From Candidatus Latescibacterota bacterium (lineage in GTDB: Bacteria; Latescibacterota; UBA2968), in contig OZ242311.1 of the NCBI GenBank assembly GCA_965207885.1, forward strand, positions 4,864,001 to 4,928,000: DNA of 64,000 nucleotides, in the 5' to 3' direction. Both the position numbers and the translations under genes were made by a program. Below are positions 59,115-64,000 of this stretch, one piece after another; the stretch's first letter is position 1, and each line of letters begins with the position of its first letter. The notes beneath the pieces are model-generated. The model ran no database searches. It had not been told where the DNA came from and saw only the letters and a program-made list of their open reading frames with translations.

Positions 59115-60242
59115 ATGCTGAATTTACACGGTGAAAAAATTATTCGGATTGAAAAAGTGGTTATGAAATTTAAGCGGCCCCGCCTGATCGGTCGCAATGC
59201 GCGAATTGGCGTTCACGGGGATATGGTGACGGATCCCGTGGTTCGCATTCATACAAGTAGCGGTGTTATTGGCGTTGGGTGGTCGCGGTTGGGTCGGGAA
59301 GAAGCCGAGTCATTGGTGGGCAAAGCCGTTGGGGATGTGTTCCAATTGCCGGGGGGATCAAACGAAGCTGGAACGGTGATTGATTTGCCTCTGTGGGATC
59401 TGGTAGCCAAATTGTCGGATCAGCCGTTGTACAAACTCCTGGGTGCTCGGGGATCTCGGGCAGTCGAGTTGTACGATGGTTCGGTTTATATCGACGATCT
59501 GGATGCCTCGGACGCGGAGGCTGTGGAGATATTCCGGGACGAAGTCAAGACAGGGCACGATTACGGGTATAAAAATTTCAAAATTAAAATTGGTCGCGGC
59601 GCGCGCTGGATGCCTGTTACAGAAGGTACGGATCGGGATGTGCTGGTTATTCACATTGTTCGTGAAGCCGCTGGCGCAGATGCAAAGATACTCGTTGATG
59701 CAAATAATGGCACGACGCTCAATATTGCAAAAGATATTCTCGAGCGTTGTGAAGATGTGGGGATTTACTGGTTTGAAGAACCGTTTCCCGAAGATGGGGC
59801 TTTTAACGAGGATTTTAAGCAGTTCATCGTCGAGAAAGGATACGATACGCTCGTCGCCGATGGGGAATCGGGTCCTCCGCCACCCAGTTATTTTGATATG
59901 GTCAAAAGGGGATGGATCGATGTGGTGCAACACGATTTTCGCGCCAAGGGGCTTACGTGGTGGCGCGAGACTGCCGCGATGATCGAACCCTGGGGAGGCC
60001 AATGTGCGCCTCATTGCTGGGGCAGCTTGATCGAGCGCTATGCCCACGCGCATTTTGCAGCTTCCGTCCCCCATTTTGCGCTTCAAGAAGCCGCTCCTGC
60101 AGATATGCCGGGTGTTGTGCTGGATGGCTGGACAATGCAGGATGGATGTTTGATGGTGCCAGATACGCCGGGTACGGGATTTGACCTCGAGGCAGATGTG
60201 ATTGAAGAGGGGGTGAAGCGGGAAGATGGGTTCAGGGTGTAA
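59115..60242 (+). CDS. Mandelate racemase/muconate lactonizing enzyme (enolase superfamily)
   Basis: DLPLWDL, FKIKIG (KxK), VDAN, WFEEP, ADGE, PHCW, PDTPGTG. Confidence 0.88.
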   Translation: MLNLHGEKIIRIEKVVMKFKRPRLIGRNARIGVHGDMVTDPVVRIHTSSGVIGVGWSRLGREEAESLVGKAVGDVFQLPGGSNEAGTVIDLPLWDLVAKLSDQPLYKLLGARGSRAVELYDGSVYIDDLDASDAEAVEIFRDEVKTGHDYGYKNFKIKIGRGARWMPVTEGTDRDVLVIHIVREAAGADAKILVDANNGTTLNIAKDILERCEDVGIYWFEEPFPEDGAFNEDFKQFIVEKGYDTLVADGESGPPPPSYFDMVKRGWIDVVQHDFRAKGLTWWRETAAMIEPWGGQCAPHCWGSLIERYAHAHFAASVPHFALQEAAPADMPGVVLDGWTMQDGCLMVPDTPGTGFDLEADVIEEGVKREDGFRV

Positions 60243-60254
60243 TGGAGACAATAT

Positions 60255-61292
60255 ATGGATATGACATTTCCAGGAGCAGAATGGGAGACGAGACCGCCTG
60301 GCGACCTCGGGTTTGACGCGGAGAAACTCGCGCGGGTGCAGAGGTGGTTGCGCGAGGTGGCAGGTGACAGGTCCTTTCAGGTGGGGATTGCGCGTTATGG
60401 GTATCTCGCTGCGGAGTGGCGGCAAGGTGTTGCGGCTGATTCTTCGCACTCACAGGCGTCCGCGGCTAAGTCGTATTATTCGACGCTTTTGGGTATTATA
60501 GTGGCCGAGGGCAAGTTGTCTTCGCCAGATGAAAGAGTTGTCGATTACTACCCAGAGATGATGGATGTGGGAGAGCAGGAGGGACCAAAGCCCGGACGGT
60601 ATGCGTTCGAGAAAGATCGCGATATTACTTTTCGGCATTTGATATGCAATGTGTCGGGCTATATGAAGCCGGGGGAGAAGCCGGGGAAAGTTTTTCACTA
60701 TCAGACTTATGGGATGAATATTCTTACCCACGCTATGGCTAAAATTTATGGGTGTTACGATGCAGATGATCCCGAAGGTTTGCCGGGATGCGGGAAGGTG
60801 ATCGAAGAAAAGTTGCGCGATCCCATTGGTGGCATATGGACGCATTCGCATTCTAATTTTGATCTGTGGCCCAGTGCGAGATTAAATATTTTTGGGTATT
60901 ACACGCAGGTGCATACCACACTGCGAGATCAATTGCGGGTGGGACACTTGTGGGCCAATTACGGCAATTGGAATGGGGTTCAGGTTGCGCCCGAGAGTTA
61001 CCTGCGCGAGGCAACGGTGACGAATGATTTTATTCTGGAAAACGAACCCAAAGAGAACTGGAAATACGGGCACGGATTTTGGTGCAATGATCGCGGGATG
61101 CAGTGGAAAGATGCACCGAGAGACTCTTTTGCCGCATCGGGCGCTGGTGCAAAGCATATCTGGATGTGCCCGCGGTTGGGGCTGGTTATCGCGCAAAATC
61201 CAGGTCTGTGGGATCAGTTCAGGGAAGAGCAAGATAAGATCGGAAGTCAGAATGAGGTGATTGCGCGAGTTGTGAATGCGGTAAAGGAATAG
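60255..61292 (+). CDS. Serine hydrolase (beta-lactamase class C-like)
   Basis: FPGAEW, SAAKS (SxxK), ITFRHL, PGKVFHY, YGHGFW, ASGAG. Confidence 0.85.
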   Translation: MDMTFPGAEWETRPPGDLGFDAEKLARVQRWLREVAGDRSFQVGIARYGYLAAEWRQGVAADSSHSQASAAKSYYSTLLGIIVAEGKLSSPDERVVDYYPEMMDVGEQEGPKPGRYAFEKDRDITFRHLICNVSGYMKPGEKPGKVFHYQTYGMNILTHAMAKIYGCYDADDPEGLPGCGKVIEEKLRDPIGGIWTHSHSNFDLWPSARLNIFGYYTQVHTTLRDQLRVGHLWANYGNWNGVQVAPESYLREATVTNDFILENEPKENWKYGHGFWCNDRGMQWKDAPRDSFAASGAGAKHIWMCPRLGLVIAQNPGLWDQFREEQDKIGSQNEVIARVVNAVKE

Positions 61293-61305
61293 GGAGGATA
61301 TATAG

Positions 61306-62628
61306 ATGGATGCAAAAACCAAAAAGTTGCAGGTGGATCAGGCTGTGAAATCGCAATCGCGGCGGGCGTTTAATCTGTCGCGGAGTATTCACGGCTGGGC
61401 AGAGCGGCCGTTTCAAGAATACGAGTCGTCGAAGGCATTGGCGGCGTATTTGGAGGAGAACGGATTTCAAATTGAATTTCCGTGGAAAAATATCCCAACG
61501 GCTTTTCGCGCCACATGGGGCACGGGCAAACCCACTATTGGCATGTTGGGGGAGTACGATGCATTGCCCAATTGCGGTGCTGAAGAGGGCACCTGGGGCC
61601 ACGGCTGAGGCCATAATCTTTTGGGCGTTGCCCCGGCCGCAGGTGCGGTTGCTGCAAAAACAGTATTGGAAAATTTGAAATCGTCTGGTCAGATCATTTA
61701 TTACGGCTGTCCGGCCGAAGAGACGCTGGCGGGCAAGGTGTATATGGCCCGCGATGGTGCATTTCGAGATCTGGATGCGGTGCTGGCATGGCATCCAGGA
61801 TCGGGTACGGGTGTTAGCAATTATGGCGGTTCGTCACTGGATTCGCTGGTGTATGAGTTTTTTGGCAAGACGTCTCACGGCGCGAGTGCTCACAATGGGC
61901 GGAGTGCATTAGACGGGGTGATGTTGATGGATGTTGCGGCGAATTATTTGCGCGAGCACGTTCCCGAAAATGTGCGTATTCACTGTGTGATTCGAGATGG
62001 TGGGGATGCGCCCAATGTGGTTCCGGCTTATGCGAAGGTGTGGTACTATGTGCGGGGGAAGGATCGTGAACAGGTGAATAAAGTACGCAAGCGATTGACC
62101 AAATGCGCCAGGGGTGCGGCGATGGCCACGGAAACGACTATGAAATGGCATCGTATCACGGCTGTGTACCCGCGTTTGCCAAATGATGTGATGTGCGAAA
62201 CTGTGCGTCAAAATCTCGAATTATTCGGTCCACCTCGTGCGTCAAAAAAAGATAAGGAACGCGTAAAGGAATTGGGATACAAAGGTGAATTTGACGGGAA
62301 GATCAAAAAGGGGAAGGGTTCACAGGGCCGCGGGTCTTCGGATGAAGATAATGTGTCGTGGCTGGCACCGATGGGTCGGTTTCAGATGGTGTGTTATACC
62401 AAGGGCACGCCGGGTCATCACCGCGATATGACCGCACAGGCAATAATGCCTTATGCCGAGCGCGCGGTTTTGCAAACGGCCAAGGTTTTTGCGGGATCGG
62501 CTATTGATCTGATTTTGGACAAAAAGGTGTTGCAAGCAGCCCGTGCGGAATTTGTGAAGGGAACAAAGGAGTTTGAGTACGATCCGCTGATCCCAAAACG
62601 CCAGAAGGTTCCCGTGGACCCTCCGTAG
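61306..62628 (+). CDS. M20 amidohydrolase (AbgB-like), candidate selenoprotein with Sec at TGA 61606-61608
   Basis: The two ORF-track pieces are in the same frame and join as GEYDALP..WGHG-U-GHNLLG (family motif GHGCGHN). CPAEE, WHP, GRSALD, APNVVP, GSSD and PGHH are all intact. 440 aa in total. Confidence 0.85.
61628..61657 (+). promoter_or_regulatory. Candidate bacterial SECIS element
   Basis: TTGC-cc-CGGCCGC-AGGT-GCGGTTG-ct-GCAA hairpin; G-containing apical loop starts 32 nt after the TGA. Confidence 0.65.
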
Positions 62629-62641
62629 AAGGAGAAAAGAT

Positions 62642-63634
62642 TTGAAAGCACAACGATTAATATGCACAGATGTCCGGCGGATTGAATTAGAGGATTTTGA
62701 TTTGCCGCGTGTGCCAGATAATGGCATTTTGGTGCAAAACGATTATACCGCCATGAGTGTTGGTACGGAAATTTACAATTATGCGCACGGGGGTGAACCG
62801 TCGCGTGCAAGGACATTTCCGCGGCCAACAGGGTATTGCAATACGGGTGTGGTGCTCGAGGTGGGCAATGATGTAAAGGGGTTGGAGCCCGGCGACCGCA
62901 TTGCCGCGCAGGGCAATCACGCCAGTCATGCGGTTATGAGCGGGAATTTTTTTAGAGCGCCCGAAGGTGTTTCGCCCAGGTCCGCGGCTTTTATGGTTAT
63001 GTGTGCTATTGCCATGCACGGGCATCGGGTTGGGCGTCCGGAATTGGGTGAGGTTGTTGCGATTACCGGTATGGGGATTGTGGGCCAGTTGGCTGCGACC
63101 TTTGCGCGGTTGGCCGGTGCGCTCTCGGTTATTGCGATTGATCTGGATGATTTTCGGTTGGGTAAAGCGAGAGATAGGGGGGCAGATATTTGTATTAACC
63201 CCAATACTGCAGGGGATGTCGCCGAAGTGGTGCGCGAGCATTGCGTGGGCGATGGGGTCGATCTGGTGATTGAAGCGACGGGTATTCCGGCGGTTTATCC
63301 CATGGCATTGACCTTGCCTCGGCTGGGTGGCCGTCTGGTCGCGCTGGGGTCTCCGCGCGGTAGTGTGGAAGTGAGTTTTTTGCCCGAGGTTCACTTGCGC
63401 GAGATCACGGTTTTGGGCGCGCATCAGCCCAAGACACCGGATGATGACCATATTTATTATCCTTGGAGCAAGCGCAGAGATCGCGAACTAATTTTGCGTT
63501 TGATGGCTGCGGGCAAGTTGCCCATCGAGGATCTGATTACCCATGTCGCCAATCCCGCCGATTGCCAGGCTACCTACGACATGCTCGCCGATAATCCGAG
63601 AGAAGTGTTGGGCGTGGTATTTGAGTGGGGGTGA
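62642..63634 (+). CDS. MDR-family (zinc-binding-like) dehydrogenase
   Basis: TTG start after AAGGAG; SVGTE, GYCNTG, PGDRI, GMGIVG Rossmann motif, IEATG, LITH. Confidence 0.85.
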   Translation: MKAQRLICTDVRRIELEDFDLPRVPDNGILVQNDYTAMSVGTEIYNYAHGGEPSRARTFPRPTGYCNTGVVLEVGNDVKGLEPGDRIAAQGNHASHAVMSGNFFRAPEGVSPRSAAFMVMCAIAMHGHRVGRPELGEVVAITGMGIVGQLAATFARLAGALSVIAIDLDDFRLGKARDRGADICINPNTAGDVAEVVREHCVGDGVDLVIEATGIPAVYPMALTLPRLGGRLVALGSPRGSVEVSFLPEVHLREITVLGAHQPKTPDDDHIYYPWSKRRDRELILRLMAAGKLPIEDLITHVANPADCQATYDMLADNPREVLGVVFEWG

Positions 63635-63684
63635 TCTCGCCTGCTAAAATAAAATTCCTGTCAGAACCATAGAGGAGATCGAAT

Positions 63685-64000
63685 ATGAGATGTCACTCTT
63701 TTAAAAATTACAAGTACGGCCCCCATGAGCGGAACGTATTTGATTTTTATCCGGCACAATCAGACGAACCCACCCCTGTTGCAGTGTATATTCACGGCGG
63801 CGGTTTTAGAAATGGCAGCAAGGATGGGATTGGTAATGAGACATTGAAAGCTTTATTAGATGCGGGCATTTCTGTCGCGGCTTTTAACTATCGTTATGTC
63901 CAGCAGGCTCCTTTGCCTGCTGCGCACTACGATTGCCGACGAGCGCTTCAGCTTCTGCGTTCCAAAGCCACCGAATGGAACATCGATAAAAATCGGATCG
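63685..64000 (+). CDS. Alpha/beta hydrolase (HSL/BD-FAE-like), 3'-partial
   Basis: GAGGAG RBS; MRCHSFKNYKYGPHERNVFDFY...YIHGGGF...NYR; runs off the right edge. Confidence 0.85.
   Translation, partial: MRCHSFKNYKYGPHERNVFDFYPAQSDEPTPVAVYIHGGGFRNGSKDGIGNETLKALLDAGISVAAFNYRYVQQAPLPAAHYDCRRALQLLRSKATEWNIDKNRI

Follow-up and report, generated by a model that had tools for sequence, protein, structure and literature searches.

A predicted selenocysteine at the metal-bridging position of an M20D-type amidohydrolase in Latescibacterota

Introduction

The closest described relatives of the enzyme reported here are metallo-hydrolases of the M20D group. In N-AGA, the sulfur of Cys-105 binds both zinc ions, together with His-107, Glu-141, His-168 and His-370 (PMC7209930, in the excerpts used here). 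CsAga, also of M20D, is bridged by a cysteine, and the M20A enzymes are bridged by an aspartate (PMC11511702, likewise as excerpted). For the RNA element that directs selenocysteine (Sec) insertion, the bSECIS criteria given in the available text of PMC13188914 are a loop of 3-9 nt, a stem of 4-16 bp, a G among the first two loop nucleotides, a spacing of 16-37 nt and an MFE of <= -7.5.

A 64-kb stretch of DNA from an uncultured Latescibacterota bacterium (the window) contains a gene of this type whose reading frame is interrupted by a single UGA. The first-pass annotation had proposed it as a candidate selenoprotein, and those of its suggested checks that were run all favoured the proposal. 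The follow-up analysis indicates that the gene almost certainly encodes one. The full reading that we favour, with a probability of about 0.86, is a cytosolic M20D-type metallo-amidohydrolase of 440 residues, in which residue 101 is predicted to be Sec, inserted through SelB and a SECIS element and bridging both metals.

Results

Reading frame and gene calls

The window sequence from the ATG at 61306 to the TAG at 62626-62628 is a single frame, and its sole in-frame TGA is codon 101 (Table 1). This confirms the earlier description of one frame broken by that TGA alone. Under translation table 11 the gene is cut into a 100-aa frame (61306-61608) and a 335-aa frame with a TTG start (61621-62628). 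In public gene calls the locus appears either as the same two pieces, of 100 and 335 aa, or as a 'peptidase dimerization domain-containing protein' of 320 aa. When TGA is translated as U, the sequence around codon 101 reads ...EEGTWGHG-U-GHNLLGVAPAAG, and the residue-101 peptide is TWGHG-U-GHNLLGVAPAAGAVAAK. The remaining catalytic motifs, which the first-pass annotation had listed as intact, were all found in the translation: GEYDALP (residues 82-88), CPAEE (135-139), WHP (162-164), GSSD (343-346) and PGHH (369-372). The ribosome-binding site that it had placed ahead of the gene was also located, as a GGAGGA.

Five other long TGA-split, same-frame pairs in the window (~13592, ~21329, ~9662, ~50633 on the minus strand and ~42283 on the plus strand) were considered and dropped as selenoprotein candidates. 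They represent adjoining genes, since the Pfam domains never extend across the TGA or no match was obtained.

Table 1. Coordinates of the gene, the flanking genes and the RNA features within the window.
Feature	Position	Strand	Remarks
Enolase-superfamily (MR/MLE) protein	59115-60242	+	Pfam MR_MLE_C 2.2e-38; upstream
Beta-lactamase-fold serine hydrolase	60255-61292	+	Pfam Beta-lactamase 6.9e-13; immediately upstream
Shine-Dalgarno-like GGAGGA	61293-61298	+	7 nt 5' of ATG 61306; read in the sequence
M20D/TIGR01891-type amidohydrolase gene	61306-62628	+	One CDS, 440 codons plus TAG stop, one UGA inside
Alternative conserved helix	61602-61639	+	RNAalifold consensus; contains the UGA; excludes the minihelix
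UGA codon 101, proposed selenocysteine	61606-61608	+	Site of the family's invariant Cys, GH[GA]-C-GH
Small hairpin GGGC-GUU-GCCC	61623-61633	+	Directly 5' of the minihelix, inside the synonymous-constraint zone
Frozen synonymous-site zone, codons 107-114	61624-61647	+	Sec forms only; 18-41 nt after the UGA
Proposed SelB-binding SECIS minihelix CGGCCGC-AGGU-GCGGUUG	61634-61651	+	7 bp, 4-nt loop at 61641-61644
Zinc-type medium-chain dehydrogenase	62642-63634	+	Pfam ADH_zinc_N 2.7e-23; downstream

Enzyme family, gene context and metal site

The translated product scored 196.9 bits against TIGR01891, over the cut-off of 153.75 (190 bits in the genome-wide search). Pfam M20_dimer was matched at residues 183-269 (2.4e-07). 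Peptidase_M20 (PF01546) was not reported here at E<=0.001; many close relatives carry PF01546 in precomputed annotation. An AF2 model (pLDDT 79.3, pTM 0.82) showed a two-domain M20 fold with a dimerisation domain. Foldseek matched it to HmrA, PM20D2 and N-AGA, the top E of 4e-30 being to PM20D2 and HmrA. The gene product is probably a dipeptidase or an aminoacylase.

The gene had been described as 'AbgB/Acy1-like', with a cysteine that bridges the metals. The bridging cysteine stands, being documented for M20D in N-AGA and CsAga; neither label does. 'Acy1-like' is imprecise because Acy1 belongs to M20A and has an aspartate bridge. AbgB identity was rejected, as there was no NCBIfam equivalog match and no adjacent AbgA-like partner or AbgT transporter; the label 'AbgB-like' is backed only by the JGI name of several homologues, 'aminobenzoyl-glutamate utilization protein B'.

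The neighbours of the gene are an enolase-superfamily protein, a beta-lactamase-fold protein, an MDR dehydrogenase and an esterase. Of 35 Sec loci, 15 have an enolase-like gene on the upstream side; the matches of the window's enolase-superfamily protein to acid-sugar dehydratases fall below cut-off. The beta-lactamase-fold gene, whose stop lies 13 nt 5' of ATG 61306, was found in just three of the 35. Downstream, 30 of the 35 Sec loci have a homologue of the dehydrogenase, whereas none of 45 Cys loci has one there in the same orientation. The gene context is a weak guide to the substrate.

The earlier alignment of the UGA with a conserved cysteine was borne out. Cysteine occupies the residue-101 column in all 102 full-length sequences among the best 120 database relatives, the other 18 being N-terminally truncated gene calls, and a HMMER alignment pairs residue 101 with the cysteine of the HmrA (3RAM) motif GHACGHN. 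U101, H103, E139, H163 and H371/372, as well as the EE pair, do not vary in alignment A1 and are spaced as in N-AGA. By homology to N-AGA and HmrA, Sec101 would ligate both metals, a comparison drawn at an identity of <=26% to solved structures and with a metal-free AF2 model. The selenolate is proposed to replace the invariant cysteine thiolate between the two catalytic metal ions, with H103, E139, H163 and H371/H372 as the other ligands and E138 as the general base. The benefit may be chemical; for example, the bridging ligand could be fully deprotonated, softer and more tolerant of oxidation.

Sec might instead be inserted without serving as a passive metal bridge, either beside a mononuclear site or as a redox, regulatory or nucleophilic selenol. 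Most catalogued selenoprotein families are linked to redox chemistry (PMC13188914, in the text available), and the GOS authors suspected a redox Sec in a trypsin-like protease (PMC2398784, in the passages drawn on). The 18-26% identity of the solved M20D structures and the dehydrogenase among the neighbouring genes would also be compatible with such a role. We regard it as unlikely, given the EE pair and five ligand positions that are invariant and spaced as in N-AGA, the TIGR01891 score over cut-off, and the translation around residue 101, which has no CxxU or UxxC redox motif.

Selenocysteine machinery and RNA structure

The host genome is a single contig and is 97% complete. The search for selA, selB, selC and selD recovered the full set in that contig: a tRNA-Sec (70.1 bits; ARAGORN call SeC(tca)), SelA (575 bits), SelB (386 bits) and SelD (369 bits, with a TGA of its own), all four exceeding curated cut-offs. 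The Sec machinery in this genome is complete. SelA was also over the cut-off in all five of the other Sec-form genomes sampled, and was not found over it in the one close genome with a TGC codon, which is 86% complete.

The synonymous sites that follow the UGA are frozen in the Sec forms. Third-position entropy at fourfold sites was 0-0.41 bits over codons 107-114, against a gene mean of 1.35 (169 sites). In the Cys forms the value at G107 was 1.71, in a profile of 46 Cys rows that includes one locus with a mis-picked frame (L129). Where a Cys gene encodes an almost identical peptide, it does so with different synonymous codons. The conserved helices pair in 98.7-99.8% of cells across 42 Sec sequences versus ~61% across 45 Cys sequences, a control from which L129 was left out. 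One Cys gene (L149) retains 91% of the pairs, and the minihelix alone is possible in three of the 45. The constraint on the RNA after the UGA is specific to the Sec forms.

The proposed SECIS minihelix has a UGA-to-loop distance of 32 nt, pairs in 99.7% of cells over the 42 distinct Sec sequences, and has an energy of -9.4 kcal/mol here and of -7.3 to -11.4 over the 42. It lies within the bSECIS limits for loop, stem, G position, spacing and energy. After its own UGA, the genome's selD carries a similar GGU-loop hairpin, AUCCAGC-GGU-GCUGGAU, although the spacer between UGA and hairpin is 13 nt in selD and 25 nt in the amidohydrolase. The small hairpin has all four pairs invariant in 42/42 sequences, and hence zero covariation. 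The alternative helix pairs in 98.7% of cells, with no pair changed on both sides and a mean of -16.5 kcal/mol. It and the minihelix fit the sequences equally well. RNAalifold favours the alternative helix, which is a misfit to the bSECIS model (10-nt spacing and a loop without G). Two-sided covariation was almost nil (one pair, in three cells, in the minihelix; none in the alternative helix) and is uninformative because the region hardly varies. Folding of 61600-61680 showed no extra stability relative to shuffles (z = 0.29), a weak test for a GC-rich coding region. An Rfam scan at E<=10 returned no SECIS family, only chance matches (mir-941, SNORD60, MEG3 and similar). The minihelix is most likely the coding-region SECIS, as a prediction.

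Low-level read-through of UGA is frequent in bacteria. The codon could thus be decoded by a standard tRNA, either a near-cognate Trp or Cys tRNA or a suppressor, placing an ordinary residue at position 101; the selenium in the polypeptide is so far a prediction from sequence. We consider this very unlikely, in view of the complete machinery, the selD-like GGU-loop hairpin and an RNA constraint that is limited to the Sec forms. The close relative in which SelA was not detected has TGC at this position. Of the window's 47 long open frames, 14 end in TGA, which is therefore not globally reassigned. In addition, no second TGA occurs across the 440 codons in any of 38 TGA-bearing loci. Sec insertion at residue 101, which we infer from these sequence features, remains the favoured reading.

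Conservation of the UGA and selection

A search of 61 genomes, the window's own included, gave 52 matching genomes at a threshold of E<=1e-40. The match contained exactly one TGA in 49 of the 52 (own included), at an identity of 70-100%. By GTDB family, the TGA-bearing matches were 30/30 in f1 and 18/22 in f2; these genomes are kin, so that the counts do not represent independent events. Thirty-eight TGA-bearing loci were examined, including that of the window, and in every one the TGA is the GHG-x-GHN codon and is followed by 339 open codons. The interrupting codon is always TGA, never TAA or TAG, in the loci compared. The UGA is kept across a deep clade.

At the residue-101 codon, 80 named loci had TGC or TGT in 45 cases and TGA in 35, the latter all at an identity of at least 71%. 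A tree from which L129 was left out placed the Sec forms in one clade (support 0.956), with six Cys forms nested within it and ~5 switches by parsimony. One nested Cys form, P0124, shares a 90% cluster with a split Sec form, i.e., the two are >90% identical.

The dN/dS ratio was 0.062-0.146 downstream of the TGA and 0.077-0.183 upstream of it (Nei-Gojobori, pairs with unsaturated dS). Between the GTDB families dS is saturated and the frame is still intact. Purifying selection thus acts on this single frame both before and after the UGA. The TGA is retained in ~97% identical contigs from two independent metagenome studies, where the T, G and A>C changes are all located at sites other than the TGA codon. 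In a run from an RNA library (X15), an 818-nt contig over 61498-62313 spans the TGA. This contig is no evidence for transcription or for the codon, since its one A>C and three of its T>C changes are among 18 unlisted differences and DNA was possibly present in the library.

Termination at the UGA would agree with the public annotation, which calls separate pieces. It would leave a fragment of 100 aa and perhaps a second protein, of 335 aa, begun at TTG 61621. The first-pass annotation had seen no ribosome-binding site ahead of 61621. That claim did not hold, as a weak GAGG at 61607-61610 stands 10 nt upstream of the TTG. The GAGG overlaps the TGA, and is itself a by-product of the TGA-GGN codons. 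The split would remove exactly the residue that is an invariant metal-binding cysteine in the full-length relatives. Purifying selection is equally strong on the two parts, which share one frame without an indel in all 38 loci, and the break is consistently TGA. We therefore hold a split gene to be highly improbable.

That the TGA arose through an error of sequencing or assembly, or that a recent inactivating mutation has made the gene a pseudogene, has nothing more than a bare stop codon in its favour and is the least credible reading of all: a mutation or error, which had been left open earlier, is ruled out by the 48 other genomes with a single TGA, the same codon in 37/37 other loci checked, the contigs of two independent studies, a downstream dN/dS of 0.06-0.15 and a frame that is intact despite saturated dS.

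Discussion

In the favoured selenoprotein reading, the UGA would be recoded by SelB carrying Sec-tRNA(Sec), and SelB would be recruited by the coding-region SECIS, most likely the CGGCCGC-AGGU-GCGGUUG minihelix. Selenocysteine is expensive to encode, and redox catalysis is the near-universal explanation for its use. A hydrolase with Sec at its metal-bridging position would provide a test of the choice of Sec over Cys without electron transfer, one that bears on the softness of the ligand, its pKa, metal selectivity and resistance to irreversible oxidation of a bridging thiolate. The matched controls exist in nature, as Cys orthologues nested in the Sec clade, and enzymes of this class are soluble and well behaved and have been crystallised before.

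If the reading is correct, the Sec form has long been retained across sponge- and marine-associated Latescibacterota, and Sec swaps naturally with Cys, even between orthologues that are >90% identical. In that case selenium would serve to adjust the metal affinity or selectivity of a Lewis-acid catalyst, or its tolerance to oxidation, and not to carry out redox chemistry.

A Sec form of any M20 enzyme was not found in the literature searched. M20 and amidohydrolase families are absent from Table 1 of PMC13188914, which covers 119 prokaryotic selenoprotein families (2026), its supplements aside. No M20, amidohydrolase or peptidase selenoprotein was found in the available text, supplements aside, of PMC13188914, PMC13326102, PMC9312934, PMC1976440 and PMC12013277. 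The corresponding text of PMC2398784, again supplements aside, has no M20 or amidohydrolase family, and its sole proteases are the trypsin-like and MucD serine proteases. PMC5658510, PMC4012986 and PMC7804941 brought nothing further. The predicted M20D selenoprotein is thus apparently an unreported family. It belongs in selenoprotein catalogues and annotation models, because public gene calls break up or shorten the coding sequence. The chances are about even that it is the first hydrolytic, non-redox metalloenzyme family with an encoded selenolate bridging a dinuclear centre, long kept and interchangeable with Cys, that tunes a Lewis-acid metal site.

Comparison with known systems

The M20D enzymes compared were N-AGA/CsAga (6SLF), HmrA (3RAM), the beta-alanyl-lysine dipeptidase PM20D2 (7YH4/8ZEI), YxeP, Sapep and ILL2. 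The amidohydrolase resembles them in fold (Foldseek E 4e-30 to 4e-19, TM 0.59-0.76), in sequence (HmrA match 1.1e-41), in the G-H-[GA]-x-G-H, EE, H, H pattern and in TIGR01891 membership. It differs in that residue 101 is specified by UGA, not by a Cys codon, and in its identity of <=26% to the solved members. E. coli AbgB (p-aminobenzoyl-glutamate hydrolase subunit B) falls in the same broad M20 amidohydrolase group; the AbgB-related 3IO1 appears in the fold list at E 1.5e-16, weaker than HmrA or PM20D2.

Predicted Sec/Cys pairs in families without known redox chemistry include the trypsin-like protease and MucD of the GOS study, UshA-like proteins and a CTP-synthase-related glutamine amidotransferase. 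As far as the available text of the sources goes, these are computational predictions, as is the amidohydrolase here, and were likewise identified through a TGA aligned to Cys together with a bSECIS. None of them, in the same text, is an M20 enzyme or has Sec at a documented metal-bridging position.

Sec ligates the catalytic metal in formate dehydrogenase FdhA (Mo/W) and in the [NiFeSe] hydrogenases (Ni), where it has been proposed, as a metal ligand, to guard the site against over-oxidation (PMC13188914, in the text available), and a metal-ligating Sec is predicted likewise here. FdhA and the [NiFeSe] hydrogenases are redox enzymes with one redox-active metal centre, whereas the amidohydrolase is predicted to have a dinuclear hydrolytic centre, of Zn, Mn or Co type, that is bridged by Sec and operates without electron transfer.

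Reading Frame and the In-Frame TGA

The translation of the amidohydrolase gene agrees with the first-pass annotation, which had described one frame interrupted solely by a TGA and proposed a new selenoprotein with this codon at the metal-bridging cysteine of an AbgB/Acy1-like M20 enzyme. With the TGA (codon 101) read as selenocysteine (Sec, U), the local peptide is ...GAEEGTWGHG-U-GHNLLGVAPAAG..., and all of the motifs listed in that annotation are present. The claim of a ribosome-binding site ahead of the ATG held, but the claim that none precedes the internal TTG at 61621 was wrong, as a weak GAGG is present there, made by the TGA-GGN codons themselves. TGA is an ordinary stop in the window DNA, terminating 14 of 47 open frames of at least 250 codons (TAA 21, TAG 12).

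Other long frames in the window are also joined in frame by one TGA (minus strand, approximately 13592, 21329, 9662 and 50633; plus strand, approximately 42283). These were rejected as selenoproteins. Where Pfam domains were found, each was confined to one side of the TGA (e.g., RsfS / IF-2B-like and Lar_N / Amidohydro_1), and the frames thus look like neighbouring genes.

Features of the amidohydrolase locus and of the Sec machinery (window positions unless stated)
Feature	Position	Strand	Remarks
Enolase-superfamily protein	59115-60242	+	First of row
Beta-lactamase-fold hydrolase	60255-61292	+	Directly upstream of amidohydrolase
GGAGGA	61293-61298	+	Precedes ATG 61306
Amidohydrolase CDS	61306-62628	+	ATG 61306 to TAG 62626-62628; 440 codons, single frame
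Structure (b), interrupted longer helix enclosing UGA	61602-61639	+	RNAalifold consensus, 98.7% of cells paired
In-frame TGA, proposed Sec codon	61606-61608	+	Sole in-frame TGA of 440 codons
Weak GAGG	61607-61610	+	10 nt 5' of TTG 61621
Structure (a) part 1, small invariant hairpin	61623-61633	+	Alignment A2
Structure (a) part 2, 7-bp minihelix	61634-61651	+	Alignment A2
Zinc-type dehydrogenase	62642-63634	+	Directly downstream of amidohydrolase
Alpha/beta esterase	63685 onward	+	After dehydrogenase
tRNA-Sec	Same contig		70.1 bits; ARAGORN: tRNA-SeC, anticodon tca
selA, selB	Same contig		575 and 386 bits; adjoining genes
selD (loci L001/L022)	G000:C1:5699077-5700198, outside window		369 bits; own TGA; adjoins tRNA-Sec gene

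Conservation of the TGA and Selection

Sixty-one genomes, comprising that of the window and 60 relatives, were searched in six frames, and 52 gave matches at E ≤ 1e-40. Exactly one TGA was present within the match in 49 of these, at 70–100% identity; by GTDB family, this applied to 30/30 relatives in f1 and 18/22 in f2. The remaining three matches, one 69% and two 38% identical, had no TGA. Inspection of 40 loci placed the TGA at the GHG-x-GHN codon in all 38 that carried it, followed in each by 339 open codons; the first-pass annotation had proposed a check of homologues for a TGA at this codon. The other two were the 69% relative (L063), with TGC at the codon, and a 38% paralogue (L064), which did not match the motif pattern. 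A second set of 80 named loci from a species-level genome collection, many overlapping the first search, comprised 35 with TGA, all at least 71% identical and mostly titled Latescibacterota, and 45 with a Cys codon (TGC 38, TGT 7) from Planctomycetota, Verrucomicrobiota, Kiritimatiellae, Lentisphaerae, Armatimonadota, Chloroflexota and others. The two sets together yielded 49 distinct Sec-form coding sequences.

Contigs from the probable source run were identical to the window. The TGA was retained in contigs from two other studies (sponge metagenome, ~97% identical), as all T, G and A>C differences were located elsewhere and there was no A>T. Sequencing error or mutation, the alternative raised at first pass, is contradicted by this retention and by the sharing of the TGA among 49/52 genomes. 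A pseudogene or terminated gene is likewise contradicted by the pattern of selection. In pairs with unsaturated dS, dN/dS (Nei–Gojobori) was 0.077–0.183 over the 100 codons 5' of the TGA and 0.062–0.146 over the 339 codons 3' of it, indicating purifying selection in the downstream part that the first-pass annotation had singled out for this test; dS between GTDB families was saturated, yet the frame was intact.

Runs with at least half of the gene's sampled words were found in five studies besides the probable source. They were labelled mostly as sponge metagenome and some as marine metagenome, and the Sec-form lineage therefore seems common in sponge-associated communities.

Sec and Cys Forms

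Among the best 120 database relatives, all 102 full-length proteins had Cys at the Sec column. The other 18 were calls of 294–336 aa starting just past the TGA, and are thus mis-annotated Sec forms. In public data, Sec forms are systematically mis-annotated, either as such N-terminally truncated proteins or as two genes. One example is P0105 (NKB70503.1), a public 320-aa 'peptidase dimerization domain-containing protein'; another is filed as 100-aa and 335-aa pieces (P0100 and P0125) on one 3,768-bp contig. The latter shares a 90%-identity cluster with a 451-aa Cys form (P0124), so Sec/Cys exchange occurs between very close orthologues.

A FastTree phylogeny with midpoint rooting covered 177 sequences, comprising 49 Sec forms along with Cys forms from 45 loci and 83 database proteins; L129, any protein shorter than 430 aa and any in which GHD or GHH replaced GHN were omitted. 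All Sec forms fell in one clade (support 0.956), together with six Cys forms, and parsimony gave five Sec/Cys changes. The likely history is that Sec was gained once and then replaced by Cys on several occasions. Five Sec-form loci carry other phylum titles: Gemmatimonadota/-etes (L081, L087, L093, L097) and Planctomycetota (L083). These are 72–75% identical to the window protein and group with Latescibacterota sequences; four are tips within the Sec clade, L081 having been removed as a duplicate sequence. Their titles may reflect inconsistent MAG labelling or gene transfer.

Sec Machinery and Proposed Recoding Signal

The window's genome is a single 6.23-Mb contig, 97% complete, and the four components of the Sec machinery for which the first-pass annotation proposed a search were all present on it. 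Its selD itself encodes a selenoprotein, with the TGA after ~20 codons (...LVSCGG-U-ASKLD). SelA was above the cut-off in 5/5 other Sec-form genomes sampled. None was found at the cut-off in one close TGC relative (G059, 86% complete), and SelA was present in four other genomes of the class with no orthologue or only a distant paralogue.

The mean entropy at four-fold third positions in the 49 Sec-form genes was 1.35 bits over 169 sites, vs 0–0.41 bits at codons 107–114 (61624–61647); at G107, it was 1.71 in Cys-form genes. Two mutually exclusive structures were identified in this region from an alignment of 42 distinct 75-nt Sec-form sequences (A2). Structure (a) pairs in 99.8% of cells, with energies of −7.3 to −11.4 kcal/mol and a minihelix loop of AGGU (27 sequences), GGGU (14) or GGGC (1). 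No real case of two-sided covariation was seen in either structure across the 42 sequences, because the region barely varies. When imposed on the 45 Cys-form genes, each structure paired in ~61% of cells; none of these genes formed full (a) or (b), and 3/45 formed the minihelix alone. Cys genes with nearly the same peptide, GVAPAVGAV, use other synonymous codons (pair scores 0.64–0.91), L149 being the Cys gene that retains most pairs.

A published model of the bacterial SECIS specifies a loop of 3–9 nt, a stem of 4–16 bp, G in the first two loop positions, a distance of 16–37 nt from the UGA and an MFE ≤ −7.5 (PMC13188914). Structure (a) fits this model, at 32 nt from the UGA; structure (b) does not, with a spacing of 10 nt and a loop without G. 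The genome's own selD has a similar hairpin, AUCCAGC-GGU-GCUGGAU, beginning 13 nt past its UGA. The two hairpins share a 7-bp stem and a GGU cap, as would fit a single SelB acting on both genes, and the minihelix is the proposed SelB site. Speculatively, helix (b) may compete with the minihelix or have a regulatory role. It sequesters the UGA itself, and alternation between the two structures could, for example, tune read-through.

Protein Family, Predicted Active Site and Gene Neighbourhood

The protein scored 196.9 bits against TIGR01891 'amidohydrolase' (NCBIfam; cut-off 153.75). The M20 dimerisation domain was its only Pfam match, and many close relatives also have PF01546. The genome encodes two further TIGR01891 paralogues, both without a TGA. 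The nearest solved sequences by HMMER were HmrA (3RAM, 1.1e-41) and the Xaa-Arg dipeptidase PM20D2 (7YH4/8ZEI, ~3e-37), followed by YxeP, 4EWT and ILL2. An AlphaFold2 model built on a 13-sequence alignment (pLDDT 79.3, pTM 0.82) retrieved PM20D2 and HmrA with Foldseek at E ~4e-30 (TM 0.64–0.76), and the N-acylglutamine aminoacylase N-AGA (6SLF) at E 3.9e-19. From these characterised kin, the substrate is most likely a dipeptide or an N-acyl-amino acid.

In the HMMER alignment, residue 101 aligns to the Cys of GHACGHN in HmrA. A Cys forms the metal bridge in the M20D enzyme CsAga, a role taken by Asp in M20A (PMC11511702). The crystal structure of N-AGA shows both zinc atoms ligated by the Cys-105 sulfur, with His-107, Glu-141, His-168 and His-370 as further ligands (PMC7209930). 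The spacing of U101, H103, E138-E139, H163 and H371-H372 matches these ligands, and all are invariant in alignment A1. By homology, residue 101 is thus predicted to bridge the metal ions.

The gene lies in a tight same-strand row (59115–64000, +). A dehydrogenase homologue is downstream in 30/35 Sec loci, with an enolase-like gene upstream in 15/35 and a beta-lactamase-fold gene in 3/35; the same arrangement was found at 0/45 Cys loci. The recurrence of the dehydrogenase and enolase-like genes in other genera suggests an uncharacterised catabolic cluster.

Comparison with Known Selenoproteins

These results support the first-pass interpretation, and we consider it highly probable (roughly 0.86) that the protein is a true selenoprotein whose Sec occupies the metal-bridging position. 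The novelty check proposed with it returned no M20, amidohydrolase or peptidase entry among the 119 prokaryotic selenoprotein families and subfamilies in Table 1 of PMC13188914 (May 2026), and nothing relevant in full-text searches of the main articles. No selenoprotein-specific NCBIfam model was returned for the protein. BSepDB confined its search to previously reported families. As far as could be checked in this catalogue and literature, the family is new. New selenoprotein families are reported regularly, so this by itself is incremental; what makes the case interesting is the predicted metal-bridging role, outside redox chemistry, together with the naturally occurring Sec/Cys pairs with which it could be tested.

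Selenoproteins have been predicted in other non-redox families, including a trypsin-like protease and MucD (PMC2398784), as well as UshA-like proteins and an amidotransferase related to CTP synthase (PMC12013277, PMC13188914). None of these is an M20 enzyme or has Sec at a documented metal-bridging position. Sec is an established metal ligand in FdhA (Mo/W) and the [NiFeSe] hydrogenases (PMC13188914). These are redox enzymes, whereas in the amidohydrolase Sec would be a ligand of a dinuclear centre that carries out hydrolysis, a predicted new variant of Sec use.
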